Assembly (NCBI GenBank): GCA_016204255.1
Contig: JACQLA010000003.1
Location: 184,088-248,087 of the forward strand
Direction of reading: 5' to 3'
Length of the DNA stretch: 64,000 nt
DNA from: Candidatus Microgenomates bacterium
Lineage (GTDB): Bacteria > Patescibacteriota > Microgenomatia > JACQLA01
Numbering within the stretch: position 1 is the stretch's first letter; the number at the start of each line of letters is the position of its first letter. A program made the translations under genes and the position numbers. The notes under the pieces are model-generated. The model was not told the origin of the DNA. It did not search any database and was given only the letters and a program-made list of their open reading frames with translations. This document shows positions 3,895 to 25,179 of the stretch, in pieces.

Positions 3895-6426
3895 ATGAGC
3901 GATATTGGAAAAATACAAGCTGCTGAAATCACACAAGAAATGCAACGGTCCTATTTGGACTATGCAATGTCCGTTATTGTTTCTCGGGCCTTACCGGACG
4001 TTCGTGACGGTTTAAAACCCGTCCATCGCCGCATCCTTTATGCCATGCATCAGATGGGGCTTTCACACGCAGCAAAATACACCAAATCGGCTAAAATTGT
4101 CGGTGAGGTTTTAGGTAAGTATCATCCGCATGGCGATATGCCGGTTTATGATGCTTTAGTCCGGCTGGCTCAGGATTTTTCGATGCGCTACGCCTTAGTC
4201 GATGGACAGGGGAACTATGGATCGGTCGACGGCGATCCGCCGGCCGCCATGCGTTACACGGAAGCCCGCCTGACCGCGATTGCCCAGGAAATGCTTCTGG
4301 ATCTGGAAAAAGAAACCGTCGATTTTGTTCCCAATTTTGATTCAACTCTTAAAGAACCTGTCTTTTTGCCGGCCAAACTTCCGAATTTACTGCTTATGGG
4401 TTCGGAAGGTATCGCGGTTGGTATGGCCACCAAAATCCCTCCGCACAATTTAGGTGAGGTGATTGACGCCATTACCTTTATGATTGGGAAAGCCAACAAA
4501 AAAGCGGAAAACAAAATGGCGGATAAGACAGATCAACAAGCAAAAGAGAACAATGAAATTTCGGCTCAGTCATCCCTTAATTTTGATGTCTCGGTTGAAG
4601 ATCTGATGCAGTTTATAAAAGGCCCCGACTTTCCCACGGGAGCGGCAATTTATGACATCTCGGAAATTACCGCCGCCTACGCGACCGGTAAAGGAAAAAT
4701 TATTATGCGGGCCAAGGCCGAAATCGAGGATATCGGTCAGGGAAAATCAGCTATTATCGTTACGGAGTTACCCTATCAAGTCAATAAGGCTCAGCTTGTC
4801 GCCAAAATTGCAGAACTTGCCAAAGATAAAAAAGTTGAGGGTATTTCGGATTTAAGAGACGAATCAGACCGCCACGGAATCCGGGTGGTGGTTGAGTTAA
4901 AACGCGATACCCGACCGCGCACTGTTTTACAAAATCTTTTTAAACACACCGCAATGCAAACAACCTTTCCTGTCAACCTCGTGGCTTTGGTCGAAGGCAC
5001 GCCTCAAACTTTAACCTTGAAAATGGTTCTGGAAAAATATATCGATCACCGCCGCCAGGTGATTGTCAGGCGATCAGAATTTGAGCTAAAAGAGGCAAAA
5101 GCAAGGCTTCACATTCTTGAGGGATTAAAAATTGCGGTCGATCATATTGATGAGGTTATCGAAACTATTAAAAAATCCAAAGACGCCGATGAGGCCAAGG
5201 GAAAACTTATGGAGCGTTTTGGTTTGAGTGTTATTCAAGCCACGGCCATCCTAGATATGCAGCTTCGCCGCCTTGCGGCACTTGAAAGACAAAAAATTGA
5301 AGACGAGTATGAAATGGTCAAAGAGACCATCGCTTATCTTGAAGATTTATTGGCTCATCCGGAGAAAATTTTAGACTTAATAAAAAGCGAGCTTTTGAAA
5401 GTTAGGGAAAAGTATGTAGACGAGAGGAAAACTCGAGTTTATAAATCCAAACCAGGAGAATTTTCTGAAGAAGATTTAATCCCCAAAGAGAATGTGGTAA
5501 TCACTCTTAGTCAATCGGGATATATTAAGCGACAGTCCTTAAATACGTTTAATATCCAACAGCGGGGTGGCAAGGGGGTTATGGGAATGAAAACTAAAGA
5601 AGGGGATGAGATTGATCATATCCTTTCGGCGTCAACCCATGACAATATTTTGTTCTTTACTAATAAAGGTAAAGTCTATCAAATGCGGGTTTGGGACGTC
5701 CCAGAAGGAACAAGAATCTCTAAAGGACAGGCTATTGTTAATATTATAAACATCGAGCAGGGCGAAATGGTTAGCTCCATCTTAACTTATCCCTCAGACA
5801 CAAAAGGGGAGGGGAAATACATTTTTCTGACTACAGAAAAAGGAACGGTTAAGAAAACTGAACTTTCAGAATATACTAATATTCGTAGAACTGGACTTAT
5901 AACGATTAAGCTCGATAAAGATGATGAGCTTTGCTGGACGAAATTAACCTCCGGTAAAGACGACGTAATTCTGGTCACCCACGACGGTAAATCAATTAGA
6001 TTTAATGAGAACCAGGTACGACCGACTAAAAGAGATACGATGGGGGTACGCGGGATTCTCTGTGGTAAAGACGATTATGTAATCGGGATGGACATTGTTA
6101 AATCTGAAAAAGACGAACTTTTGGTTATTATGGAAAAGGGGTTAGGTAAAAAAACTACCCTTTCCGAATTTCCAAAACAAAGCAGAGGAGGCAAAGGCGT
6201 TAAAGCCTGTGAAACCACCCAAAGAACCGGTAAAGTTATCACCTCCCATATTATTGAACCCAATTGTGACTCCATTATTTTAACATCTGTTAACGGTCAG
6301 GTCGTTAAAATGCCCATAAGTTCTGTTCCCAAACTTTCCCGCGCTACCCAAGGCGTGATCCTGATGCGTTTTTCCGATCCGAAGGATTCATTGGCCGCGG
6401 CGACTTGCCTTACAAAAGAAAAGTAG
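3895..6426 (+). CDS. gyrA: DNA gyrase subunit A
   Basis: N-terminal [29 protein letters not shown] (catalytic Tyr region) and a C-terminal beta-pinwheel with repeated GxGKG motifs. 843 aa, with a short Lys/Asn-rich insertion near residue 200. Confidence 0.92.
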
Positions 6427-7598: not shown

Positions 7599-8150
7599 AT
7601 GTCTATTAAACAGGAAAGATTTATTAATGGTTTTGAAAAACCGCGGGAGGAATTACTTTCTCCAGGAGAGTTAGAAATTTTAAAACTCATGGCGCGCGGA
7701 TTAAGTGAAGCGGAAATTCATAAGGAATCAGGGATTCCTATTCAGCTTTTAAGACACCTTCTTTACCGCGATCCCGCCCATTACAAAAGTCCAAATGTAA
7801 AACAAAAGGGAATTCTTCCAAAACTCGGGGCTCAAAGTCGTGAACAAGCTGTCTTGAAAGCGCTTGATTTGGGTTTTTTAGATCTTGGAGAAATAGAACG
7901 AAAGTCTGGCTTTAATCTGGAAAGATACGCAGAGTTAGACGATAAAGAAACACAATTATTGAATGTGCTTGATGATTCCTCTCATTCTGGACGAAATCAG
8001 ATTCTCGCTGAAAGATTAGGCGTGGTAAGAGATACCGTTAAAGATCAATTGAGCAGTATCTACAGAAAATTAGAAGTTTCAAATAAGATGCAAGTCGCCC
8101 TTTTTCATCGAATTGTCAAATCAAAACCACCACTTCAGTTGCCAAATTAA
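7599..8150 (+). CDS. LuxR/GerE-type transcription regulator with two tandem HTH_LuxR domains (paralogue 1 of 3)
   Basis: N-terminal LSPGELEILKLMARGLSEAEI and C-terminal ETQLLNVLDDSSHSGRNQILAERLGVVRDTVKDQLSSIYRKLEV each match the LuxR HTH pattern. No receiver or ligand domain. Confidence 0.6.
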   Translation: MSIKQERFINGFEKPREELLSPGELEILKLMARGLSEAEIHKESGIPIQLLRHLLYRDPAHYKSPNVKQKGILPKLGAQSREQAVLKALDLGFLDLGEIERKSGFNLERYAELDDKETQLLNVLDDSSHSGRNQILAERLGVVRDTVKDQLSSIYRKLEVSNKMQVALFHRIVKSKPPLQLPN

Positions 8151-8222
8151 TCAAAATGGCCTATAATTGAGCATCAATTAGACGAGCCGCGTAAGACGCG
8201 GCGAAGTATAATAGAAAACCTT

Positions 8223-8759
8223 ATGACCATAGAAAGATACATACCGACTACTGCAGTTGAAGGCGAACAAAGCAGCCTTTTAACCTCCCGACAAATCGAG
8301 ATCCTTAAATTAGTAACCTATGGTTTGACTTATAAGGAAATCGCTGCGAGACTATTAATTTCAGATCAGACCGTCAAAAACCATTTAACTCAACGTTCAG
8401 AATTTGGATCGATCCCTAAAGGAATCTTTGATCGACTTAATGTACAAACTAGAGAACAGGCTGTTTTAAAAGGACTCGAATTAGGTTATTTAGATTTAAA
8501 CGATATTGTCGAAAATTCCGGTTTACAACTCAACAAAATTGTGTTACTCACCCCCAGAGAAATTGATGTTATACACAAGCTTTCTGATCCCGAATGTGTA
8601 GGGAATAATAAAGTCACTGCTAAATCGCTAGGAATTTCTCCCGCCACATTGCATTATCATATGGAAAATATCTGCAAAAAATTAGAGGTCAAAAACCGAA
8701 TTCAGGCGATGGTTTTTCACCTGGCAGTTAAAAGAGAATTGGGGGTAGTAAATGAGTAG
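8223..8759 (+). CDS. LuxR/GerE-type double-HTH regulator (paralogue 2 of 3)
   Basis: SRQIEILKLVTYGLTYKEIAARLLISDQTVKNHL plus a second C-terminal HTH. Shares the TREQAVLKGLELGYLDL linker motif with its neighbours. Confidence 0.6.
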   Translation: MTIERYIPTTAVEGEQSSLLTSRQIEILKLVTYGLTYKEIAARLLISDQTVKNHLTQRSEFGSIPKGIFDRLNVQTREQAVLKGLELGYLDLNDIVENSGLQLNKIVLLTPREIDVIHKLSDPECVGNNKVTAKSLGISPATLHYHMENICKKLEVKNRIQAMVFHLAVKRELGVVNE

Positions 8760-9288
8760 AGAAAGAGTTATAGATTATCCCCGCCAGAGCGTGTTAAGCC
8801 CGCAGAAAAGAGAAATTCTTGAGCGTGTAGCCATTGGTCAAACCAATGCTGAAATCGCCAGGGCATTTGGTAATGCGCTCGCAACAGTTGTAAGTCATCT
8901 GCGCGGGGAAAATAACTCAATTCAGCATCGATTAGGAGCACGAAGGCAAGGCCAGGCAATCCTTAAGGCGTTTGAAATGGGGGAGCTGGATTTAATAACA
9001 ATAGTTGAAAAATGTAACTTTGACTTTGACCGCTATAAAAAACTGATGCCAAGAGAAATTCAAGTTTTAGACAAACTTACCAATCCTTCTCGTCGAATGG
9101 GAAACAAAGATATCGCAGATGTAATGCATATCGGCCGCGATGCCGTCCGACTTTCTTTATACAGCATCGGGAAAAAATTAGGAGTCAGTAAGAGGGAAGA
9201 GATGATAGTTTTTCATCTGGCGGCTACAACTTATCCTTTTGAAAAATCGGTAAGATACAATGGGGTAGTTGAAGAATCGGGTTTTTAG
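8752..9288 (+). CDS. LuxR/GerE-type double-HTH regulator (paralogue 3 of 3)
   Basis: Same architecture. Overlaps paralogue 2 by 8 nt (translational coupling). The stop abuts the convergent purD stop. Confidence 0.55.
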   Translation: MSRERVIDYPRQSVLSPQKREILERVAIGQTNAEIARAFGNALATVVSHLRGENNSIQHRLGARRQGQAILKAFEMGELDLITIVEKCNFDFDRYKKLMPREIQVLDKLTNPSRRMGNKDIADVMHIGRDAVRLSLYSIGKKLGVSKREEMIVFHLAATTYPFEKSVRYNGVVEESGF

Positions 9289-10620
9289 TTACCGGGATAC
9301 TCCTCGCTGGCCGATGTCGGTACGATAATGCATGGGGACGAAGAAAATTTTCCCTTCGGGAACCTCTCCCTTCCGCATTTCTACCGTGGTAGCAATAGAC
9401 CGATAAGCTCGATTGGCAGCGATTTTTGGAGTTGAGCCAAGACCGGCAACAAGGGCCACCCGTCCGCCTGAAGTTAGGATTTTTCCATCTTCATTTCTGG
9501 TTCCCGCTTGAAAAACGACAACATCTCTTTTTTTGGCAACTTCTTCAAGCCCAAAAATTTCTTTACCCGTTTCGTACTCTCCCGGATAACCGCTGGATGT
9601 TAAAACCACACCAACACAATACTCATTCGACCATCGTAAAGGAGTCTTATCTAATCTTCCATCAACCAAAGCATCAAAAGCTTGGATAAGGGGAGTTTGG
9701 AGTAGGGGCAAGGCTCCTTGAGTTTCCGGGTCCCCGCCGCGGCAGTTTATTTCCAAAACTTTGGGACCATCTTTTGTCATCATCAAACCGGCATAGATAA
9801 ATCCTTTGTAGGGGCCCGAGTTTGCTCCCGCTTTTTGAACAATTGGTCTTAGAATCTGTTCAGTCAAAGGCCTTAGATCTTCCGGACTAATCACTTCCCA
9901 GAAGGGAGCAACAACACCCATTCCGCCGGTATTTGGACCCCTATCACCATCAGAAACCTGTTTATAATCCTCCATGGGAATTAGCGGCTGGATTGTCTCT
10001 CCGTCGGTTAAAGCAATTAAGGAAACTTCCCTGCCTTCAAGTTTTTCTTCGATTACCACGCGGTCGCCGGCCGAACCAAATTCTCTGTCAACCATCAATC
10101 TTTTCAAGGAATTTTGAGCTTCTTCAAGGGTTTGGCAAACGAAAACACCTTTACCTCCGCATAAACCATCAGCTTTTATCACCACCCCATCCCGCTCCCA
10201 AGCGGCTAAAAAATCTCGAGCATTCTGATAAATACTAAAGGTAGCAAAATCCGGCCCGGGAATACCCCAGCTGGCTAAAGCGTGTCGGGCATCTGCTTTA
10301 CTTGTTTCAAGTCTTGCAGCTGATTGTGTAGGCCCGACAATTCTTTGACCTCTATCGTTAAATTCATTGACGATTCCTTTTGCCAAAGGTTCTTCCGGCC
10401 CGACCACTGTCAGATAAATATTATTTTCCCGTGCATAATCGGCTAACTTTCGCGGATCATCTATTCCAATCCCAGCGTTTGTGCCGCTTTGGGAAAGATC
10501 CGCATTGCCGGGTTCGGTGTAGTGGATTTTCACAGTTGGATCTTTTCCCAAAGACCAAGCATAAGCACTTTCCCGAGCGCCATTCCCAACTATCAAAATT
10601 TTTTTAAGAGTTTCCGGCAT
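9289..10620 (-). CDS. purD: Phosphoribosylamine--glycine ligase (GAR synthetase)
   Basis: 443-aa ATP-grasp protein. N-terminal KILIVGNGARESAYAWSL and the overall PurD layout. Last gene of the minus-strand pur operon. Confidence 0.85.
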   Translation of the reverse strand: MPETLKKILIVGNGARESAYAWSLGKDPTVKIHYTEPGNADLSQSGTNAGIGIDDPRKLADYARENNIYLTVVGPEEPLAKGIVNEFNDRGQRIVGPTQSAARLETSKADARHALASWGIPGPDFATFSIYQNARDFLAAWERDGVVIKADGLCGGKGVFVCQTLEEAQNSLKRLMVDREFGSAGDRVVIEEKLEGREVSLIALTDGETIQPLIPMEDYKQVSDGDRGPNTGGMGVVAPFWEVISPEDLRPLTEQILRPIVQKAGANSGPYKGFIYAGLMMTKDGPKVLEINCRGGDPETQGALPLLQTPLIQAFDALVDGRLDKTPLRWSNEYCVGVVLTSSGYPGEYETGKEIFGLEEVAKKRDVVVFQAGTRNEDGKILTSGGRVALVAGLGSTPKIAANRAYRSIATTVEMRKGEVPEGKIFFVPMHYRTDIGQRGVSR

Positions 10621-15455: not shown

Positions 15456-16637
15456 CTAAGTAATAATTTTGGGGAGCTGATTTGTTTTTATTGCCTCTTT
15501 GATTTCCATGGCGACGCGTTCGCCCATACTAACCGGTCTTCCATATAAATAGGAGCTATAGGGAGTGGCCGCGATTCCTGGGGAGCCCGGCATGCGCAGG
15601 GCCACGTCAAAAACCGCGATTTCTTTTTTGGGTGGACCGGGCAAGATAACCGCTTGCAAGCCAAAAGGGCCGATAATTCCCGGCCCAAACATCTCTTTTG
15701 TCGCCTCGACAAACCGTTCTCCCATCTCGTAAGCCATCTCTAAAAATGATTCCAAAACAGTCACAGCAATGTGACCCGCCTCCTCATAGGTCGGGCGGAT
15801 TTTGGCTAAAATTTGCGCCTGTTGTGTCTGAGGTAAACGCAAGAGTCCGTCTAAATTTGTTTGTCTTCTTGTGTCAGTTCCCAAAAGCTCTAAGCGGCCG
15901 AGAGTAGGGGAGTAGAAAAAGTTGAAATTGACCTGGGCACCAAGTAGAAATTCTTCAATAATTACATTTTTTAGCCCGCTTTCGGTAATTTTTCCGATTT
16001 TAATTAATTTTTCTGATTCGGTTAAAAATTCTTTATAGGAATTTGCCAGAAAAAAGGCCCGCTCAAATGATCGTTCTTTTTCATTAACGCTGACTTTAAC
16101 AATTACCATCCGATCAATATCTTTGGGATTTTTGAAAATCTTCGGATACTTAATCCCGCCTTTTTCCAAAAGATCATACTGGTTGGGTTTTACCGATCTT
16201 TCTTCGGCCCGAAACAAAAAGCGGTTGCCAAAGACAGGGATTTTAAATTTTTTTTCAATTCCGTCATAATCCCCGAGATAAACTTCAAAGGAGCGGTGGG
16301 GGATAAAGATGCAGTTTTTGGCCCGCAGTTTTTTTTGAACATCCGCAGTTAATAAATCTTTTATTTTTTCAACATAAAAAATTTCATCCACGCAACCGAC
16401 CGAAGGTCGTCCTGAGCTTGCCTGCGGTGAGGACATTCGGCTGAGCTCAGTCGAAGCCCTTGTCGAATCTGCCGAAGGACCTCTTTTAAAATATTGATCA
16501 TAAACTTTTCCCCGGCCTTTTTCCGCGATCACCAGCGTCTTAAACCCCATTTTTTTGGCGCCAAAACAAACTTCCAAGGCACTGTGCCGGGCAAAAACAG
16601 CAATAATGGGATTTTTATAATCTTTAACTGAGGTCAT
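15456..16637 (-). CDS. Archaeal-type FAICAR synthetase (formate-dependent, ATP-grasp) PurP, paralogue B with a low-complexity insertion
   Basis: PurP N-terminus (IAVFARHSALEVCFGAKKMGF) and conserved blocks (PHRSFEVYLG, NRFLFRAEER, GPFGLQ, MSMGERVAMEIK). A roughly 40-aa Ser/Pro-rich insertion lies near residue 55. Confidence 0.75.
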   Translation of the reverse strand: MTSVKDYKNPIIAVFARHSALEVCFGAKKMGFKTLVIAEKGRGKVYDQYFKRGPSADSTRASTELSRMSSPQASSGRPSVGCVDEIFYVEKIKDLLTADVQKKLRAKNCIFIPHRSFEVYLGDYDGIEKKFKIPVFGNRFLFRAEERSVKPNQYDLLEKGGIKYPKIFKNPKDIDRMVIVKVSVNEKERSFERAFFLANSYKEFLTESEKLIKIGKITESGLKNVIIEEFLLGAQVNFNFFYSPTLGRLELLGTDTRRQTNLDGLLRLPQTQQAQILAKIRPTYEEAGHIAVTVLESFLEMAYEMGERFVEATKEMFGPGIIGPFGLQAVILPGPPKKEIAVFDVALRMPGSPGIAATPYSSYLYGRPVSMGERVAMEIKEAIKTNQLPKIIT

Positions 16638-16810
16638 TTTATCTTAAGTATTTCCTTGTCATTTCGAGCACATTCGTTACACTCAGCGTAAACTCCGCGA
16701 GAAATCTAGCGAACCCCGATTTTATCGGGGGAAGCGTAAAATGCGATACTTCTTGCCTAGATTTCTCACCCCCGATTTAATCGGGGGATTCGAAATGACA
16801 TTCAGCGTTA
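16638..16810. repeat. Nested imperfect palindrome of about 170 nt containing two copies of a 19-nt hairpin (cccccgatt(a/t)aaatcggggg), between the two purP genes
   Basis: Outer arms tgtcatttcga/tcgaaatgaca and inner arms gagaaatctag/ctagatttctc are reverse complements. One arm carries a 31-nt asymmetric insertion. Confidence 0.6.
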
Positions 16811-17815
16811 TTAATCCAAAACCAGATTTAATTTATTTTGGCCAATCGCGTTTTTTATCTCCCGGGCAATTCTTCGGCCGGTTGACATCGGCTCATCATA
16901 TAAAAATTGCGTGTAAGGCGATCCTTCGATAAAAAGATTAGTCCCCGCAACGATCCGACAGGAAATTTCAATTACAAAAAACTTTTGATCGGGAGTGATG
17001 ATCGTTTCCAAACAAAATGGGCCAAAGAGTCCTTTTTTCGGTATAATCTTTTGGGATGTTTTAACAACTTTCTCACCCATGGCAAAAGCTTCCGGTAAAA
17101 GCGATTCGCGCAGGGTCAAGGGACTGTTCCCCACAACAACGTATGATGGTTGAATGCCAAGACCTTCCTGGTTTTGGGAAGGGATACGGCCTAAGGAATC
17201 AACATTGGTTTCATACCGACGGTCAATGCTTAAAATTTCAAGTTTTCCAGTTAAGGGCGAGTAAAAGTAATGAATAAAAAGTGGTACCCCGATAATATAT
17301 TCCTGGATAACATAATCCCGAACGGTGAAATGGATAATTTTTTCGGCAAATTCCTTTTTATTGCGGGCAAAAAAGTAACCCCGGCCGCCGGCTGCGCCAT
17401 TGGATTTGACCATTACCGGTGCGTTAATTTGAGCAGGTAGATCAAATTGTCGCGGGATGTTTATACCCGCCTGCATTAACCAATCTCTTTGCCTTTTTCG
17501 ATCAGCTTCCCAATCTAAAACATCTTTGTTACCAAAATAAGAGGTTTTCATCTTTTTATTTTCATCCAAACCTAAATAAGCCACAAAAGAACCATGAGGA
17601 ATAATAATTACTCTTTTTTCCAGAAGTTTTTTTTCGATTTTGAAAAAATCTACATATTTTTTGATCGTTATCAATTCATCAATAAAGGGAAAGTTTTTAT
17701 AAAAAGATGAAAATTCCGGCGTGGTGATGGCAATTGTCGCAAAGCCCTCATCTTTGGCCCCCTTAAGAATTTGCAGACAGGAATGTGAGGCCAGGGTCGC
17801 AATTGTGTATTTCAT
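16811..17815 (-). CDS. purP: Archaeal-type FAICAR synthetase PurP, paralogue A
   Basis: 334 aa. Collinear with archaeal PurP throughout (TLASHSCLQILKGAKDEGF, IIPHGSFVAYLG, GGRGYF, FIHYFYSPL, GPFCLE, STGRRIAREIK). Confidence 0.8.
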   Translation of the reverse strand: MKYTIATLASHSCLQILKGAKDEGFATIAITTPEFSSFYKNFPFIDELITIKKYVDFFKIEKKLLEKRVIIIPHGSFVAYLGLDENKKMKTSYFGNKDVLDWEADRKRQRDWLMQAGINIPRQFDLPAQINAPVMVKSNGAAGGRGYFFARNKKEFAEKIIHFTVRDYVIQEYIIGVPLFIHYFYSPLTGKLEILSIDRRYETNVDSLGRIPSQNQEGLGIQPSYVVVGNSPLTLRESLLPEAFAMGEKVVKTSQKIIPKKGLFGPFCLETIITPDQKFFVIEISCRIVAGTNLFIEGSPYTQFLYDEPMSTGRRIAREIKNAIGQNKLNLVLD

Positions 17816-17911
17816 TGATGTATTGTATGGCAGAGGCTGAGAAAATGCAATTAGCAGCGCTTATTTTACTTCGAAGCCCTAAAGTATTAAAATATTCAGC
17901 ATTAAATTAAT

Positions 17912-19003
17912 ATGACAACCACCAAAGAAGGTTATAACCCTAATTCAGCAGGAAGTAGTTCTTCCCTGGCAGGCTTGACGCTCCATCCGGAAATTCCTGA
18001 GAAACCCTCAGATGATTTTTTAAATGGATGGCGGCGTTTTAAGACTAAACCGCCGGAAATCGATCTTTCCAAAGGCAATTTTTGGCAAACCGAGCTTGGC
18101 GCAGCAGCTAAAGAATTCGTTTTTGCGCAAACAGATCGTCCCAAAACAACTGTCCAGGTTGCCAAAAAATTACGGTTAAAAGGGGGTAAAGAATCATCTC
18201 ATTTTATAATGAAGCTCGTTCGAAGCGGAATAATTGTAGGCGCGGAAAAAGCCGGAGGCAGAGGATATCGACTCCCTAAACCTCAAATGATTATTTGCGC
18301 CCTTGTTCTCCGTGACTTAGAAGATGGCCTTTCACTTCCCGAAATCGTAAGTCATCTTTCTCAAAAACTGGAGGGGACCGATTTAAAGCAATTTGTGGGC
18401 GAGGCAAAGGAAAATTATGATGATTTAAAACCTGGGGTGGTTTTTTTCACCGAAACTTCTCCCTGGTATCAAAAAACCTTTGAGTGCATGACAGTAACTG
18501 ATTCCCAAGGGACATTAGGCGGTGAGGATAAGTCATTAATCTCCCAAAATGTTCAACCAGACACGGAAGAAATTGATGAGGAAGACTTACCCGAGTTTAA
18601 ACCAAAAAGCCCATTAGATAAGATCATAGAAATTGATGAGGAACAATTGGCAGAGTTGGAAAAAATTGATCCGGAACGACTTAAAAAGATTTACGGTCGC
18701 GCGCCTGACAACTCTCTAGAAACGTTTAACCTTCATCGCCTAAATGCGATTGCGAGCGAAAAACTACCATTCTCTGTGGTGAAAACATTGCTATTCATTC
18801 ATCTTGTTCGAAATAGACATCTCAGGCCTCTAGATGAGAAGTTAGATGATTTAACTTTCGCCGATTTTCGGCGTACGGCCCAAACTTGTCTTAGAATTTT
18901 TGACGACTATCCTCATCTCCAAAATCTTGCTCAGCTTTATAAATATCTCAGGCAAGCGGTTGAAGAAAATCCAACTCGATTTATGGAGCCCTCAAGATAT
19001 TAA
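17912..19003 (+). CDS. Hypothetical protein with a possible winged-helix segment and an acidic repeat region
   Basis: 363 aa. TTVQVAKKLRLKGGKESSHFIMKLVRSGIIVGAEKAGGRGYRL is wHTH-like. An acidic EEIDEEDLPEF / EIDEEQLAELEKID repeat follows. Confidence 0.3.
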   Translation: MTTTKEGYNPNSAGSSSSLAGLTLHPEIPEKPSDDFLNGWRRFKTKPPEIDLSKGNFWQTELGAAAKEFVFAQTDRPKTTVQVAKKLRLKGGKESSHFIMKLVRSGIIVGAEKAGGRGYRLPKPQMIICALVLRDLEDGLSLPEIVSHLSQKLEGTDLKQFVGEAKENYDDLKPGVVFFTETSPWYQKTFECMTVTDSQGTLGGEDKSLISQNVQPDTEEIDEEDLPEFKPKSPLDKIIEIDEEQLAELEKIDPERLKKIYGRAPDNSLETFNLHRLNAIASEKLPFSVVKTLLFIHLVRNRHLRPLDEKLDDLTFADFRRTAQTCLRIFDDYPHLQNLAQLYKYLRQAVEENPTRFMEPSRY

Positions 19004-19009
19004 AAACGT

Positions 19010-19747
19010 ATGCGACAAGAGAGAACAATTGGCAATATTCATGAACACCACCCCAGGAAGAATCCATATGGGGAATATTTAACTGGGGATGAAATCAAAT
19101 TTAGTCTTCAAACCCTACAATCAGATGGCTCTTTAAGGTCTTGTGATCAAAGAATAGTTATTCGAGATGTTCGCGGCGGAGGGTTTTTTGGGCGGGTTAT
19201 AATTCCTGAAGATGGAGGATACGTTATAAAAACTTCCTGCCCGGATTCATGGCATCATTTATGGCGGGAAGTTAACTGGGATTTCAAACCGTTTCCAGCT
19301 CGAGTCTTTGAAATTGACGCCCAACTCGAACATCTTTCCACAAGACTTATTCATCAAGTTTTACCAAGATTATCCGGCGGAAAATTCCGCAGTCCTGATT
19401 CATTTGGCTACACGGACTTGCCCAACGGATTTGCTCAAGTCGTAGAAAAAATGGAGGGAAGAGGGCCACGATTTGATTTGCCTAAAAACGAATTTTTGGA
19501 ATTTCGCCAGGCACAGGAAGAACTCACCGATTTGGCTTTGCGTCTAGGTCTTGAACAAGCAGGTCAGATACACCCGGAAAATCCTTTTGGAATGGCCAAT
19601 CTTTGGAAAGAAAAAGACGGCCATGGTTTTATTTGGCTCGATACCATTCCAGCTATTCCCCACAATGGCTGGATTAAACCTTTTTTCCACTTTAAATTTC
19701 ATAAAAAAAATGCGGCAGTGGTTTGCTCAGAAAAAAACTACTTTTAA
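19010..19747 (+). CDS. ABC1/UbiB-like atypical protein-kinase-fold protein, N-terminal part (probable frameshifted gene)
   Basis: Gly-rich VRGGGFFGRVII..YVIKT, and a catalytic-loop-like QIHPENP...GFIWLDT that matches the ABC1 HxDxHPGN...DFG arrangement. The ORF ends 37 nt after an A8 run. Confidence 0.4.
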   Translation: MRQERTIGNIHEHHPRKNPYGEYLTGDEIKFSLQTLQSDGSLRSCDQRIVIRDVRGGGFFGRVIIPEDGGYVIKTSCPDSWHHLWREVNWDFKPFPARVFEIDAQLEHLSTRLIHQVLPRLSGGKFRSPDSFGYTDLPNGFAQVVEKMEGRGPRFDLPKNEFLEFRQAQEELTDLALRLGLEQAGQIHPENPFGMANLWKEKDGHGFIWLDTIPAIPHNGWIKPFFHFKFHKKNAAVVCSEKNYF

Positions 19748-20627
19748 TCGTATCCATACAGGATACTTCCTGAATGAAATAGTCCAAAATAAACATCTTT
19801 TCCCGCCTGATCTTTACCAAGAATTAAAACAAGAGCTTTCCCTTTATGAAAAACTTTGGGAGAAAAGAGAAGAAATACATAAAAACGACAAACCGGATAT
19901 CGGTCCGGCGGCAAGAGCCCTGGGTGAAACCGCCAAAGATCTGCTTACTGAAAGAGCCATTTTTAAACTAATCGCCGATCCTGAATATAGGGCAAATAAG
20001 TTGGCTGATTTTATCTCTATCCTGACCGATCCTAAATATCGTGCTTTTTTACTCCAGAAAAATATTATTTTAAGAGGAGTAGAAAGAGCCCGGCAAGAAG
20101 GAATAATTGCTGACGATGAATGGAGTGCTGTCTGGGAAGCGATGGAAATTGCTCGGGCCCCTGAGAGAAAAACCCGTTTCGATCCGAAGGCAACTTTAAC
20201 AAGCTTGCAAATTTATTACCTTGTCTCAGGTCAAATCCTAAACATTCTTGAAGGTTCTGCATATATAAAAGCAGTCCTCGACGAAGATAAATTTAAGGCT
20301 GTAGCTTTAGGGATATTTGTTGGTCGAATACTACCATCTATCATAAGGCCGGTCTCAACCTTGATAACCGGAGCCGTTAGTAAAAACGATCTCAGAGTTG
20401 CTACAGTCTTCTCGGCTTTTCCCGGCGGAACCTGGGCCGCTATACCCATTCAATTCGGTGCCATGGCAGCAGGTAGAAATCGGTTAGTTTTACATTATGC
20501 TATTCGAGACATTATTGCTGGATTATCAAAGTTAAGTCCATCAGGCGGTTGGGGAACAGAATTAGAAGCTAAACTTTATGAAAAAGTTGGAGCACGTTTG
20601 GAAAAAATTGCCCAGCCAAAAGATTAA
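19710..20627 (+). CDS. Helical C-terminal part of the same UbiB-like gene, or a separate overlapping gene (ATG at 19710 directly after the A8 run)
   Basis: Frame 0 is open from 19551. The in-frame ATG at 19710 is inside the 3' end of the previous ORF. Combined length of about 540 aa equals a typical UbiB/ABC1 protein. Confidence 0.4.
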   Translation: MRQWFAQKKTTFNRIHTGYFLNEIVQNKHLFPPDLYQELKQELSLYEKLWEKREEIHKNDKPDIGPAARALGETAKDLLTERAIFKLIADPEYRANKLADFISILTDPKYRAFLLQKNIILRGVERARQEGIIADDEWSAVWEAMEIARAPERKTRFDPKATLTSLQIYYLVSGQILNILEGSAYIKAVLDEDKFKAVALGIFVGRILPSIIRPVSTLITGAVSKNDLRVATVFSAFPGGTWAAIPIQFGAMAAGRNRLVLHYAIRDIIAGLSKLSPSGGWGTELEAKLYEKVGARLEKIAQPKD

Positions 20628-20663
20628 CTCATTTATTCCCCGAGTGGAAGGCATCGTGGACTT
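20625..20663. repeat. Direct repeat copy 1 (39-bp perfect core, taactcatttattccccgagtggaaggcatcgtggactt). Orphan copy of the recombinase 3' end.
   Basis: Identical to 21358..21396. Imperfect similarity continues for about 20 more nt (…ttatttgtta…). Confidence 0.9.
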
Positions 20664-20739
20664 TTCGCAGTTATTTGTTAATAATACTAGATCTTCAGAT
20701 AATTTGCCTATACTCTATTTAAAATAGTAAAATACGCCT

Positions 20740-21360
20740 ATGGGTAGCAAGGAAGAAAGACAACAGAATCGAGGAGAAAAAAAGCCAATTGGAAAGTGGA
20801 CAACAGAATGGGAGCCAGGATTGGATGTGGAACTACCCATAAAGGGTGACGATATACAGGGTTTCTCCGGTTGGGCCTCGTGGGTTTGTTTCGGTGAGCA
20901 CCATCTGGGATTTGACTTTGCCGTCTATATTGATGAAAAAGGGAATCAGATTGAAGGTCTTCCAAAAGATACCCCTGTAAGAGCTATTGCGGACGGCACG
21001 GTAGTAATGGTTGATAACTGGGATAATTTCCTTGAGGATCCATATTATAACTTTATTAGTATCAGACACGGCCATAATGAGGCAGGACCATCTTCAGAAT
21101 ATATCCATATCATATCTTTAGTTAAGATGGGCCAACTTGTTAAAAAGGGAGAGGTCATAGGAAAAGTGTGGGAAGCTGAAGATCCGGAAGAAAGAAAAGA
21201 ACATCCGGCCCCACACCTACATCTTTCCTTAGCCAATGGTCGCGTGGAAACAGACGAACCATTAGATTTAGGAGAGGTGGATCCTGTTAAAGTCTTCCCA
21301 GAGTTGGGGAAGATTCCGCAATTTATTGAACCAGACGATGATGAGTTAACTGTAATCTAA
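20740..21360 (+). CDS. M23-family (LytM-type) zinc metallopeptidase, no signal peptide
   Basis: HHLGFDFA (HxxxD), VRAIADGTVV, IRHGHN and PHLHLSL (HxH) motifs. 206 aa. Flanked by the 39-bp direct repeats. Confidence 0.7.
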   Translation: MGSKEERQQNRGEKKPIGKWTTEWEPGLDVELPIKGDDIQGFSGWASWVCFGEHHLGFDFAVYIDEKGNQIEGLPKDTPVRAIADGTVVMVDNWDNFLEDPYYNFISIRHGHNEAGPSSEYIHIISLVKMGQLVKKGEVIGKVWEAEDPEERKEHPAPHLHLSLANGRVETDEPLDLGEVDPVKVFPELGKIPQFIEPDDDELTVI

Positions 21361-21396
21361 CTCATTTATTCCCCGAGTGGAAGGCATCGTGGACTT
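21358..21396. repeat. Direct repeat copy 2. Overlaps the last 11 codons plus stop of the recombinase gene on the minus strand.
   Basis: Reverse complement encodes [11 protein letters not shown], which is the C-terminus of the 21362..22282 ORF. Confidence 0.9.
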
Positions 21397-22282
21397 CTTT
21401 TAATTGTTTATTTGTTACATGGGTATAAATCTGGGTGGTGGAAATATTTTTATGCCCTAGCATCTCCTGAACCGAACGCAAATCAGCCCCTTGAATTAAA
21501 AGATCGGTCGCGAATGAATGGCGCAGGCCATGGGGCGTAATTTTTACCGGTAGGCGACATTTTTTCGCGTACTTTTCCACCATTCTTTCAACTGAACGAG
21601 CAGTCAACCTCATCTGTTCGCCATCTTTTTCCTGTTCAACCTTGCCTGAATAACGGATAAACAACGGCTTGAAATTGTCTTCTCTTTTTCCCAGATATCT
21701 TTTAAGCCAATCAACCGCCGAATGAGACAAGAAAACCACCCGGCTTCGTCCTCCCTTGCCGATCACCCCAAACTCCCGGCGTTCCAAATTAATATGATCG
21801 CGGTTTAGTTTTACAAGTTCGGAGACACGAAGACCGGTGGAAAAAAGTGTTTCCAAAATCGCCTTATCACGTAAACCTTGCGGGGTTGAGATTTCCGGTG
21901 AGTTTAAAAGCCTTCCTACTTGTTCATTATCTAAAAACTTAAGCGAACGACTCTCAGCTTTGGGCAAATCAATTTTTTCGGGTGATAAAACTTTATAATC
22001 TCGCTTTGCTAGATATCTTAAAAAAGCCCGCAGGGCAATGACATAATAATTTTGCGTAATTCGCTTTAAGGGTGCCGGCTCGGCAACGTGAGCTAAATAA
22101 AGCCGGTAACGGCGCACAAGCTCAAGATTTATTTCCTCCGGTTTTTCGATAGGGGAGTTGGCTTTAACCCAAGCAGCAAACCTTTCTAAATAGTGCCGAT
22201 AATCTCGAATCGTTAAAGGAGAGCAATTCTTTTCAATTTCTAAATATTCTAAAAATTCATTAATTAATTTTTCTAAATTCAT
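21362..22282 (-). CDS. Tyrosine site-specific recombinase, XerC/XerD-like
   Basis: N-terminal SAM-like domain ([26 protein letters not shown]). C-terminal catalytic [39 protein letters not shown] with the catalytic Tyr. Confidence 0.85.
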
Positions 22283-22465
22283 AGGGTAGGGTAGTAGAGT
22301 CGTAAAATTTAATCTCTTTTTTCATTTTACGACATCATAAGAAGTTGTCAATCCACAGATTCTTCAGTTTTCTCTAGATTGTGCGACATCAAATCATTTC
22401 TGGAGCCTCCTGTCAACATTTTGCTATTGACAATACCATTTAATTAAGATTTAATAATGTGAAGT

Positions 22466-23718: not shown

Positions 23719-25179
23719 AAAATCGGCTTATTATACATCGTTAGTTATTAAAATTTTAGTTTTGGGCTTTAGAGCAAGCCGTATATTCTACGAGCTCGCT
23801 AAATGCCCTAGAAGGGCTTTTAAAAGACTGAAAGCACTAAGTAGTCGTCTTCTAGGCCTCTTTAAAGATCAAAAAAATCTTTTTTCGGAAAAATTTTATT
23901 AAAACCTATAGTAGAGAAGGGGAGTCGCAAATATAAACGGTGGCAACAGAAACCATCTCCCCTGGCATAAAAATAAACCGGAGAATCGAGCCTTTCCCCT
24001 ATAAGTTGCATTTATATTGGTTTTAGGCCAATGCAAGGCTCCAAATCTGATAGTTAACCATACGGAAACCATATTTTAAAAAGATTTCCTAAAATTTAGG
24101 CAGGATTGGGTAAAGAAAGGGAATTTAAGGCCTTTATATGGTTGGAATTTAGAAAAAAGCTGTAAACTTTATTAGAAGTTAAAAAATACACCCCTTCCCC
24201 AAGCGATACTGCTTGGCGTCGCAAAAGTATTATTGTGCGACATTATAGGAAACTCGCTCCTCCCGGGAAAGGAGCCCCAAAAACCTCTCTCTATGCGAGC
24301 TATAAAATCCGATCATTATTAAAAGACGTGTCCTGTTGCCTTGAGATTATCCCGGGGAGTATACTCTTCCATTTAGATAGACTAACAATCAAACTGAACC
24401 TACATATCTTAATTCAGAGTGCGTTAAAACCGTTAATGAATTGAGGCCGGCAAGAGCATCACCTGCTTCTGACCCCGTATTAAATAATAAATATCGCATT
24501 ACAACGCTCTAGAAGTCCAATTTCGAGGCCATTTCATCAACCATTTTTGGGTTTTTTATGGTTTATGTTCTACTTAGGTAACAAATTGGGGCATCACATA
24601 ATAGCGGGCCAAACTCTCAATTTAGAGCCTAAGAAATAGTGTGGACTTTATAACAAAAAAGCCCTTCTCCTCAAGGAAAAAGAAGCAAATCCCTTAAAAC
24701 GATGTCGCAATATATCAAACGATTTAAGGCTTTATGACGTTCTAAAGTCTTATTTTTGTGGCTAATTTTTGGAGAATTATCGACCTTGATAGAATTTGGG
24801 GCGTAGTAATGCGCTAAAGTTTTATTTTTGTGCGCAAATAATGTGTTCAATCAAGGGAGGCAGTAGAAGTGAGAAAAGCCATAAAAGCACTCTTCTTCCC
24901 AAGTCGCTAATCTATGGCGTGAAAAGACTTATAGTATTTGTGTGAAAACTTATCCACAGTATTTACTATAGGACTATTATAGGCTTTAGTATCAAACTGT
25001 ATCACCCCCTCCTCCTCCCCTTTTTACTCGTTTTATTTAAAAAAATTGCAGTCGACAATAAAAACATTTTTAAAACAAATCCGCAAATGGTGATTTTAAA
25101 AAGCGGAAGGAAATAAATTGTTAGAGGGAAAAAATGAGATACTCTTCTCTCCCCTGTTTTCCAATAAACGTAAGAAAAA
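23719..25179. other. 1.46-kb ORF-free AT-rich region (no ORF of 70 aa or more on either strand)
   Basis: Stops in all six frames. It contains a 20/22-nt direct repeat (ctaaagt(c/t)ttatttttgtg, 79 nt apart) and several short hairpins. Density elsewhere in the window exceeds 90% coding. Confidence 0.6.

Follow-up and report, generated by a model that had tools for sequence, protein, structure and literature searches.

The xer locus and the 39-bp repeat

Our analysis of a 64-kb stretch of DNA from a Candidatus Microgenomates bacterium (the window, 64,000 nucleotides of contig JACQLA010000003.1) centers on a gene for a tyrosine recombinase, xer, and on a perfect 39-bp direct repeat that copies the 3' end of this gene and brackets a gene for an M23 peptidase (Table 1). 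On balance, we consider it somewhat probable that the bracket is an insertion scar at the coding tail of xer and that the xer end acts as a landing pad for incoming genes.

The recombinase is full length and has the features of an Xer resolvase, with an R-H-R-Y catalytic region and a conserved LGHK...TTQIYTHV stretch. It passed the NCBIfam XerA model NF040815 (234.8 bits, cutoff 220), scored slightly under the cutoffs of both the curated XerC and the curated XerD model, and failed the integron-integrase model TIGR02249 (114.9 bits, cutoff 265). Its homologues number in the thousands, the best 120 listed being 67-87% identical; across the Microgenomates the protein identity is 61-87%, and the nearest available relatives reach at most 87% in protein and ~75% in DNA. 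The YebC-RuvC-DUF5656 synteny found on the 5' side of xer is also present in relatives. Judged by its sequence, the window recombinase is a conserved chromosomal Xer of the XerA/XerCD type.

The repeat, TAACTCATTTATTCCCCGAGTGGAAGGCATCGTGGACTT, had been described in a sequence-only reading of this DNA, and most of that description held. Exact searching confirmed the two perfect copies as the only ones in the window, where the 39-mer is also the longest direct repeat; 100 shuffles produced no match. Each copy begins, as had been stated, on the TAA stop of the preceding plus-strand gene, copy 1 with that of a 305-aa open reading frame (ORF) (20625-20627) and copy 2 with that of the M23 gene (21358-21360). 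Copy 2 is the resident, translated end of xer, whose TGA stop is the complement of 21362-21364. It had been taken to hold the last 11 codons plus the stop; the stop is there, and only two nucleotides of the eleventh codon are. Copy 1 is indeed an orphan, the identical xer tail being followed by decayed in-frame codons. The ~20 nt of further imperfect similarity that had been claimed proved weak as a gapped DNA alignment, with a 10-mer match of the kind that ~4-10% of random comparisons reach, which is not significant. They stood up as an ungapped continuation in the xer frame, six codons long, with 10 of 18 nt identical to the resident gene. The "L-R" of this continuation agrees with the consensus of other xer alleles (typically N-K-Q-L-R-E) and not with the resident "L-K." The in-frame continuation suggests that the duplicated xer tail is ~55 nt long, of which 39 nt are perfect and 16 decayed.

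The insert between the two copies measures 694 bp and contains, as the sequence-only reading had it, a single gene, for an M23 peptidase without a leader. The translation has intact zinc-ligand motifs, HxxxD (HLGFD) and HxH (HLH), and shows neither a hydrophobic N-terminus nor a signal peptide. The promoter-like site ahead of it ends 6 nt before the ATG, and the mRNA may therefore be leaderless as well. A Pfam scan between the copies detected the M23 domain only, with no integrase or transposase.

The inverted repeat at the junction between the M23 end and copy 2 has the start of the 39-mer as its right arm, which takes in the xer stop, and is absent at copy 1. It could form a terminator hairpin common to both genes. 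RNA folding of the 39-mer gave no significant structure for either copy or strand (z = +1.8 to -0.9), and a terminator scan and an Rfam search at the repeat returned no terminator-like site and no match. A structured RNA or terminator within the repeat itself was rejected on these three results.

Table 1. Positions of the features around the 39-bp direct repeat, in coordinates of the window
Feature	Position	Strand	Basis or remark
Three lineage-restricted ORFs (363, 245 and 305 aa)	17912..20627	+	Convergent on xer, between the orphan tail and purine genes
Copy 1 of the 39-mer (orphan xer tail)	20625..20663	-	Identical to copy 2
Decayed in-frame extension of the orphan tail	20664..20679	-	With 20662-20663, reads N-K-stop-L-R-K against resident N-K-Q-L-K-E
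M23 promoter-like site	20704..20733	+	TTGCCT-18-TAAAAT, consensus match alone
M23 cargo gene, 206-aa Peptidase_M23	20740..21360	+	Pfam PF01551, 49.8 bits against a gathering threshold of 28.7, E = 4e-13
Perfect 8-bp inverted repeat	21341..21365		ATGAGTTA-N9-TAACTCAT, spans the junction of M23 end and copy 2
Copy 2 of the 39-mer (resident, translated xer tail)	21358..21396	-	TGA stop, 10 full codons, 2 nt of the eleventh, 4 nt past the stop
xer, 306-aa tyrosine recombinase	21362..22282	-	Pfam Phage_integrase 8e-44 and SAM-like N domain
Strong promoter-like site of xer	22324..22351	-	TTGACA-16-TAAAAT, overlaps one GTCGYAHAAT copy

Orphan xer tails in related loci

To set the window beside its relatives, ~165 xer-orthologue loci from species-representative genomes and JGI metagenomes (labelled L003, L006, and so on) were searched by BLAST, with a DNA profile of the tail (nhmmer), and with tail-peptide patterns. 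Orphan xer tails of 21-150 nt were present in 10 of them (~6%), namely the window, L006, L009 (which has four), L025, L053, L088, L111, L114, L115, and L149. All eight extra nhmmer matches with E<1 were on the xer strand and downstream of the gene, and exact tail peptides of the form FH(SGNK/GKGK/...)-stop, sought in all six frames, were found 12 times downstream on the xer strand and nowhere else. As a control, a direct downstream duplication of the final 100 nt was sought for all ORFs of 150 aa or more in these loci. Such duplications were observed for 6 of 162 xer genes versus 3 of 1756 other ORFs (odds ratio 22, Fisher p = 2e-5).

Six of the loci have cargo at their tails. The genes enclosed by the tails are diverse accessory genes in mixed orientation, and no integrase was found in the cargo of the related loci. 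An M23 peptidase lies between the tails in the window, a 739-aa Fic protein in L053, a 328-aa Fic protein and a DUF5678 ORF in L009, a 1202-aa protein of unknown function in L149, and two small ORFs, one of them PaaX_M-like, in L025. The short orphan of L115 lies 67 nt past the xer stop and is followed by a gene for a GNAT acetyltransferase. The most elaborate case is L009, where an array of five tails in 2.6 kb delimits four short units.

The orphans of the relatives differ from their resident tails mostly at silent positions. In the aligned orphans (copies 2, 3, and 4 of L009 and that of L025), 34 codon differences are synonymous and 5 non-synonymous; adding the hand-aligned orphans of L149 and L115 brings the ratio to ~50:6, including AGT-TCG and TCT-AGT serine switches, and third positions are nearly saturated in some orphans. 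This pattern argues that the orphans evolved as coding tails under selection for the Xer C-terminus. By their codons, they are formerly translated tails of diverged xer alleles from other lineages, and they would have been orphaned recently enough to escape decay. The topology of the arrangement, its recurrence, its polarity, its specificity for xer, and the coding history of the orphans can all be read directly from these loci.

Where the orphans begin varies. A single Val codon is the starting point of five of them, spread over four genomes, and the others start at -21, -24, -27, -85, -90, and -150. The block that is identical to the resident tail also differs by locus, comprising the last 39 nt in the window and the first 41 nt in L009, and forming a mosaic in L149.

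A syntenic comparison with relatives, which the sequence-only reading had proposed, could be carried part of the way. In a Levybacteria-like clade, xer abuts a conserved convergent gene X in L058 and L048, and cargo with an orphan tail sits between xer and gene X in L149 and L115. In L003, the closest relative with enough flanking sequence (87% Xer identity), pur genes directly follow xer at the place where the window has four extra ORFs. Empty-like synteny was found in these loci, but a strain-level empty site was not. None of the four extra ORFs, M23 or its three neighbors, was found in any other xer locus, and tblastn with the 363-, 245-, and 305-aa ORFs gave no similarity in the other ~165 loci. 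Of the three, only the 305-aa ORF was also searched against a database, which returned one homologue with 40% identity, and this single distant homologue offered no usable empty-site context. The block of three ORFs probably came in earlier at this very place, as an accessory insertion. At its far end (17816-17911), nothing convincing as a third orphan tail was seen with nhmmer or by eye.

M23 homologues are at most 46% identical and make up a small, fast-evolving family of ~200-aa peptidases. The two that could be placed (L169 and L170) lie away from xer and lack repeats at their flanks, which argues that the M23 gene is cargo. The idea of M23 as an intrinsic cassette was dropped on this evidence. 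Further copies of the 39-mer were not found: there are no degenerate copies with three or fewer mismatches in the window, and neither JGI metagenomes nor IMG/VR contain its 24-mer core.

Some further observations concern these loci. In L009, the DUF5678 ORF runs in frame into a 90-nt orphan xer tail (4254-4580) and, if expressed, would be a chimera ending in the Xer C-terminal peptide. Hairpins resembling repetitive extragenic palindromes (REP-like; GTTTACCCTGAG...GTCGAAGGG, or CCCCGAT-AAA-ATCGGGG) are dispersed in intergenic regions of L009 (2963-3100), L111 (3224-3272), L114 (8889-8941), L006 (6172-6195), and the window (16638-16810), where they lie between two PurP genes. L111 and L114 share both flanks and have different hairpin sequences.

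Origin of the bracket

In the reading that we prefer, the incoming molecule would have been a circular DNA on which a copy of the xer tail accompanied the M23 gene and its promoter. A single reciprocal crossover of the Campbell type, within the 39-nt stretch over which this copy and the resident tail now agree, would give the order xer body, tail, M23 (antisense), tail, and old downstream gene. Such a crossover would leave xer intact and turn the distal tail (20625-20679) into an untranslated orphan beside the former neighbor of xer, the 305-aa ORF. The 39-nt repeat would in turn let the host delete M23 cleanly and restore the junction between the 305-aa ORF and xer. The same outcome in ~6% of the Microgenomates xer loci points to the xer end as a lineage-wide landing pad for integrase-less accessory genes, and the lack of a recombinase in the cargo suggests that the exchange works in trans. 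The identity of the window tails over 39 nt would reflect a recent event in the same population or later conversion.

As to the route, we tentatively favor a homology-guided exchange of the RecA type on the shared tail sequence, since the repeats vary in length (21-150 nt), the identity blocks shift, and there is no conserved core. A site-specific exchange by Xer itself or by another tyrosine recombinase is possible, with less to recommend it; in favor of capture catalyzed by Xer are the singling out of a recombinase gene, the boundary that five orphans share at a Val codon, and the array in L009. The decay of a larger element is less likely again.

The sequence-only reading had seen in the repeat an att-like duplication left by integration at, or recombination with, the 3' end of the recombinase gene. 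The scar reading is supported by recurrent, polar, xer-specific tails around cargo and by their synonymous differences; the 733-bp unit is at most putatively mobile at present.

Several observations weigh against an insertion scar left by a simple crossover. The combination of 39 of 39 identical nucleotides beside 10 of 18 is not what a simple crossover of diverged tails predicts, and needs an incoming tail that was already identical to that of the host, or gene conversion afterwards. Plain homologous recombination alone gives no reason why a recombinase gene should be the hot spot. In four relatives, what separates the resident xer tail from the first orphan is precisely a REP-like hairpin, and not cargo; no model accounts for this pattern cleanly, and one based on circles needs cargo-less units or deletions. 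The GC content of the M23 segment (0.43) is close to that of the host (0.41) and gives no sign of a recent foreign origin, so that compositional foreignness of the insert was ruled out. By a coarse count of shared ORFs, the downstream side of xer is not more variable than the upstream side. Finally, no excised circle, empty-site allele, or second location of the M23 cassette was found in JGI metagenomes, in IMG/VR, in the xer loci, or through the search for homologues of the 305-aa ORF.

The strongest rival, itself doubtful, is cassette capture catalyzed by Xer, in which the end of the enzyme's own gene would be the attachment site and integrase-less cassettes with replacement tails would be stacked in the manner of an integron. 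It would explain why the hot spot is specific to the recombinase gene, why the cargo has no integrase, and how the five-tail array of L009 arose, with its four short units including Fic and DUF5678 ORFs. The same Val-codon start in five orphans from four genomes fits a defined site, and divergence at synonymous positions fits tails that are translated whenever they come first in an array. However, the 39-mer lacks a dyad-symmetric core, the third positions of the tail vary freely although the host Xer proteins are near-identical there, and the remaining orphans start at six other places. Folding detected no attC-like structure, and the enzyme scores 115 bits against the integron-integrase cutoff of 265. 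The proposal that the M23 gene is a cassette captured by the adjacent recombinase is doubtful on the same grounds: the tail has no core-like dyad, its DNA is free beyond its coding function, and the integron-integrase model failed. A true integron was rejected likewise, the IntI-type model having failed and no folded attC-like palindrome or dyad above the chance level having been found. In its widest form, the idea would be an integron-like platform of the Microgenomates, a lineage of the candidate phyla radiation (CPR), in which an XerA-type enzyme uses the last ~35 coding nucleotides of its gene as attachment site and cassettes are inserted, stacked, and exchanged between lineages. M23 would be an example of these cassettes, and L009 would show five tails in an array; the tail of the cassette first in line may become the C-terminus of the enzyme. 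We regard such a platform as unlikely.

About equally unlikely is that the bracket is the remnant of a larger element whose own xer-like gene recombined with the host xer, through homology or at an att site, before deletions left the cargo and a 3' stub. This account covers the specificity for xer, the right boundary fixed at the stop, and the variable left boundaries (21-150 nt), together with the coding-type divergence of the orphans and the missing integrase; the repeated units of tail and REP hairpin in L009, L111, and L114 could be gene ends with their terminators. Yet a full- or half-length second xer was seen downstream within 8-10 kb in none of the ~165 loci, and IMG/VR holds no close xer homologue, the best being 30% identical. 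The orphan in the window borders directly on the promoter region of M23 while its 39 nt are still perfect, which would require a very tidy deletion.

A purely local event without mobile DNA has little to commend it by comparison. Here the tail would have been duplicated in situ around a resident M23 gene, by slippage, repair, or gene conversion, and its identity kept by conversion or by a function such as termination. The host-like GC content, the hairpin across the M23/copy-2 junction, and the TAA within the repeat that is used by both convergent genes are in keeping with such an origin. Against it stand the related xer loci, all of which lack M23 and the three adjoining ORFs, and the origin of the relatives' orphans in deeply diverged alleles rather than in the resident gene. 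The 39-mer, moreover, has no significant RNA structure, and the scan called no terminator-like site there.

A reading of the 39-mer as a dif-like site for Xer, with the M23 segment as an integrative mobile element exploiting Xer (IMEX) or a dif module between two such sites, is very improbable. The neighbor is an Xer-type recombinase, and small modules flanked by Xer sites are known from Acinetobacter plasmids. Against this, the best 11-N(6-8)-11 dyad scores 7/11, the commonest value in random 76-mers, and the lengths and positions of the repeats differ between genomes. In 84 orthologues, the third-codon positions of the tail have near-maximal entropy and are as free as those of the rest of the gene, which argues that no conserved 28-nt site is embedded in the tail. 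With a dyad at the chance level (centers of 6-8 bp only were scanned) and no conservation at synonymous sites, the dif-like site was rejected.

An assembly artefact, such as a chimera of strain variants joined through the 39-mer, is just as remote, even if the source is a metagenome-assembled genome (MAG). Two contig records of 208,915 and 309,928 nt have the same M23-xer adjacency, although both may have been assembled from one read set; the proteins on the 309,928-nt record carry the consecutive GenBank accessions MBI4100364/65, and the other record is CAYQSR010000002.1 (GCA_964420235.1). All ORFs are intact, and similar arrangements are present in nine further loci whose samples are unrelated. 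Metagenome assemblers usually finish with a k-mer longer than 39 nt, which makes a misjoin at this repeat unlikely. A target-site duplication by a transposon or insertion sequence was discarded outright, as the repeat is 39 bp long (2-15 bp being expected), no transposase is present, and the ends of the insert, TTCGCAG... and ...CTGTAATC, are not inverted repeats.

The genomes of CPR bacteria (Patescibacteria) are tiny and contain few recognizable mobile elements, and how they acquire accessory genes is largely obscure; we know of no genetic tools for these organisms. A defined landing pad, used repeatedly and located where a universal gene ends, would be a tangible way for the CPR to gain genes; those seen here, for cell-wall hydrolases, Fic toxins, and acetyltransferases, are plausibly of use in an episymbiotic lifestyle. 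An orphan xer tail would then serve as a searchable mark of recently acquired genes in thousands of MAGs, and engineering could look to the landing pad as a neutral, naturally occurring site of integration. If Xer does perform the exchange, the reach of Xer-exploiting elements would extend from dif sites to coding sequence, and cassette capture would have been invented a second time, independently, by an enzyme of the Xer family.

Surroundings of xer and comparison with known systems

The region upstream of xer is marked by the motif GTCG[CT]A[ACT]AAT. Three of its four copies in the window (22299-22308, plus strand; 22324-22333, 22378-22387, and 24232-24241, minus strand) lie just upstream of xer, the expectation for the whole window being 0.6, and two of the copies are arranged as an inverted repeat of 10 bp, 14 nt apart. 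The motif is ~20-fold enriched in the 260 nt upstream of xer in 149 orthologue loci (L003-L168 among them), where it is often fused to a -35 or -10 box. It resembles the GCGCATAAT arm of E. coli dif and could be an operator or a candidate Xer-binding site. The window has one xer only. A second Xer paralogue, 34% identical, lies just upstream of the main xer in L093 (322-1227) and L022 (1954-2859), which suggests that some Microgenomates may have a two-recombinase system.

Farther from xer, the 1.46 kb between the Trans_reg_C and DUF5656 genes (23719-25179) contain no ORF of at least 100 aa and no Rfam match, only one GTCGCACAAT copy and an imperfect 39-nt direct repeat (24722-24760 and 24794-24832). 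A gene-poor gap is found at the same position in L003, L006, and L007. Around 8000-10000, the GC skew flips from positive to negative, and the genes flip from plus to minus strand at 9288/9289 with no intergenic space; this region, ~12 kb from xer, may be a replication terminus. The 363-aa ORF contains an imperfect 30-nt direct repeat (18568-18597 and 18628-18657, 60 nt apart) in which an acidic EIDEE...L.E motif recurs. Beyond it, two tandem DUF1246/DUF1297 genes (15456-17815), encoding PurP-type, archaeal-style FAICAR synthetases, lie by purB and purE-purC. No PurP gene was seen among the purine genes of L003.

A literature search on insertion at the 3' end of xerC or xerD, or on the end of a housekeeping xer as a hot spot, returned nothing relevant, and the xer gene end looks like a landing pad for new genes that has not been described before. 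Each of the known systems shares a part of its features. The integrases of the Sulfolobus spindle-shaped virus (SSV) type in archaea likewise have the recombination site inside the recombinase coding sequence, but theirs is a viral gene that is split on integration, whereas the chromosomal housekeeping xer stays whole. The IMEX and the pdif modules of Acinetobacter are, like the units described here, small and integrase-less, and are thought to move with the host Xer. They are flanked by 28-bp dif-like 11-6-11 sites, of which the xer tails have neither the symmetry nor the conservation at the DNA level.

Integrons, with their IntI enzyme and attI and attC sites, offer the image of a tyrosine recombinase gene beside single-gene units that lack a recombinase and have a repeated site between them. 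The units here may be promoter-poor or promoter-bearing. Unlike in integrons, where attI is upstream of the gene, the repeated site is a coding tail at the 3' end; the orientation of the cargo is mixed, no attC-like palindrome was found, and the IntI model failed. The islands at the 3' ends of tRNA and transfer-messenger RNA (tmRNA) genes are closer in that they occupy a polar hot spot at a gene end, their repeats are that gene end, and successive events leave tandem remnants. These islands have an integrase by the att site, which is missing here, and because the target here encodes a protein, the remnants keep a peptide reading frame, unlike those of the RNA genes.

The nearest counterpart is the integration of e14 or phage 21 at icd. 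In E. coli, e14 lies between icd and the 3' fragment icdC (PMC13626634), and a passage of that paper citing Hill et al. 1989 describes ends that differ mainly by conservative or synonymous changes. At both icd and xer, a housekeeping gene has the element in its 3' coding end and stays intact through the alternative 3' end that comes with the insert, and the displaced fragment stays on the far side as a direct-repeat pseudogene; in the window, the 39-mer is the gene's 3' end and the xer ORF is complete. The differences are those of scale and equipment. e14 is ~15 kb long and carries its own integrase and excisionase, whereas the insert here has 694 bp, one gene, and no recombinase, and neither the window nor the relatives' cargo has an integrase of its own by the attachment site. 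The comparison of occupied and empty sites extends to "empty" synteny at the genus level, no same-species sequence having been found. Moreover, the gene targeted here encodes a recombinase, more than one orphan end can accumulate in a row, as in L009, and the ends in the window are identical over 39 nt. By analogy with e14 and icd, the synonymous pattern of the orphans is the signature of integration into a coding 3' end for which the incoming DNA provides a substitute.

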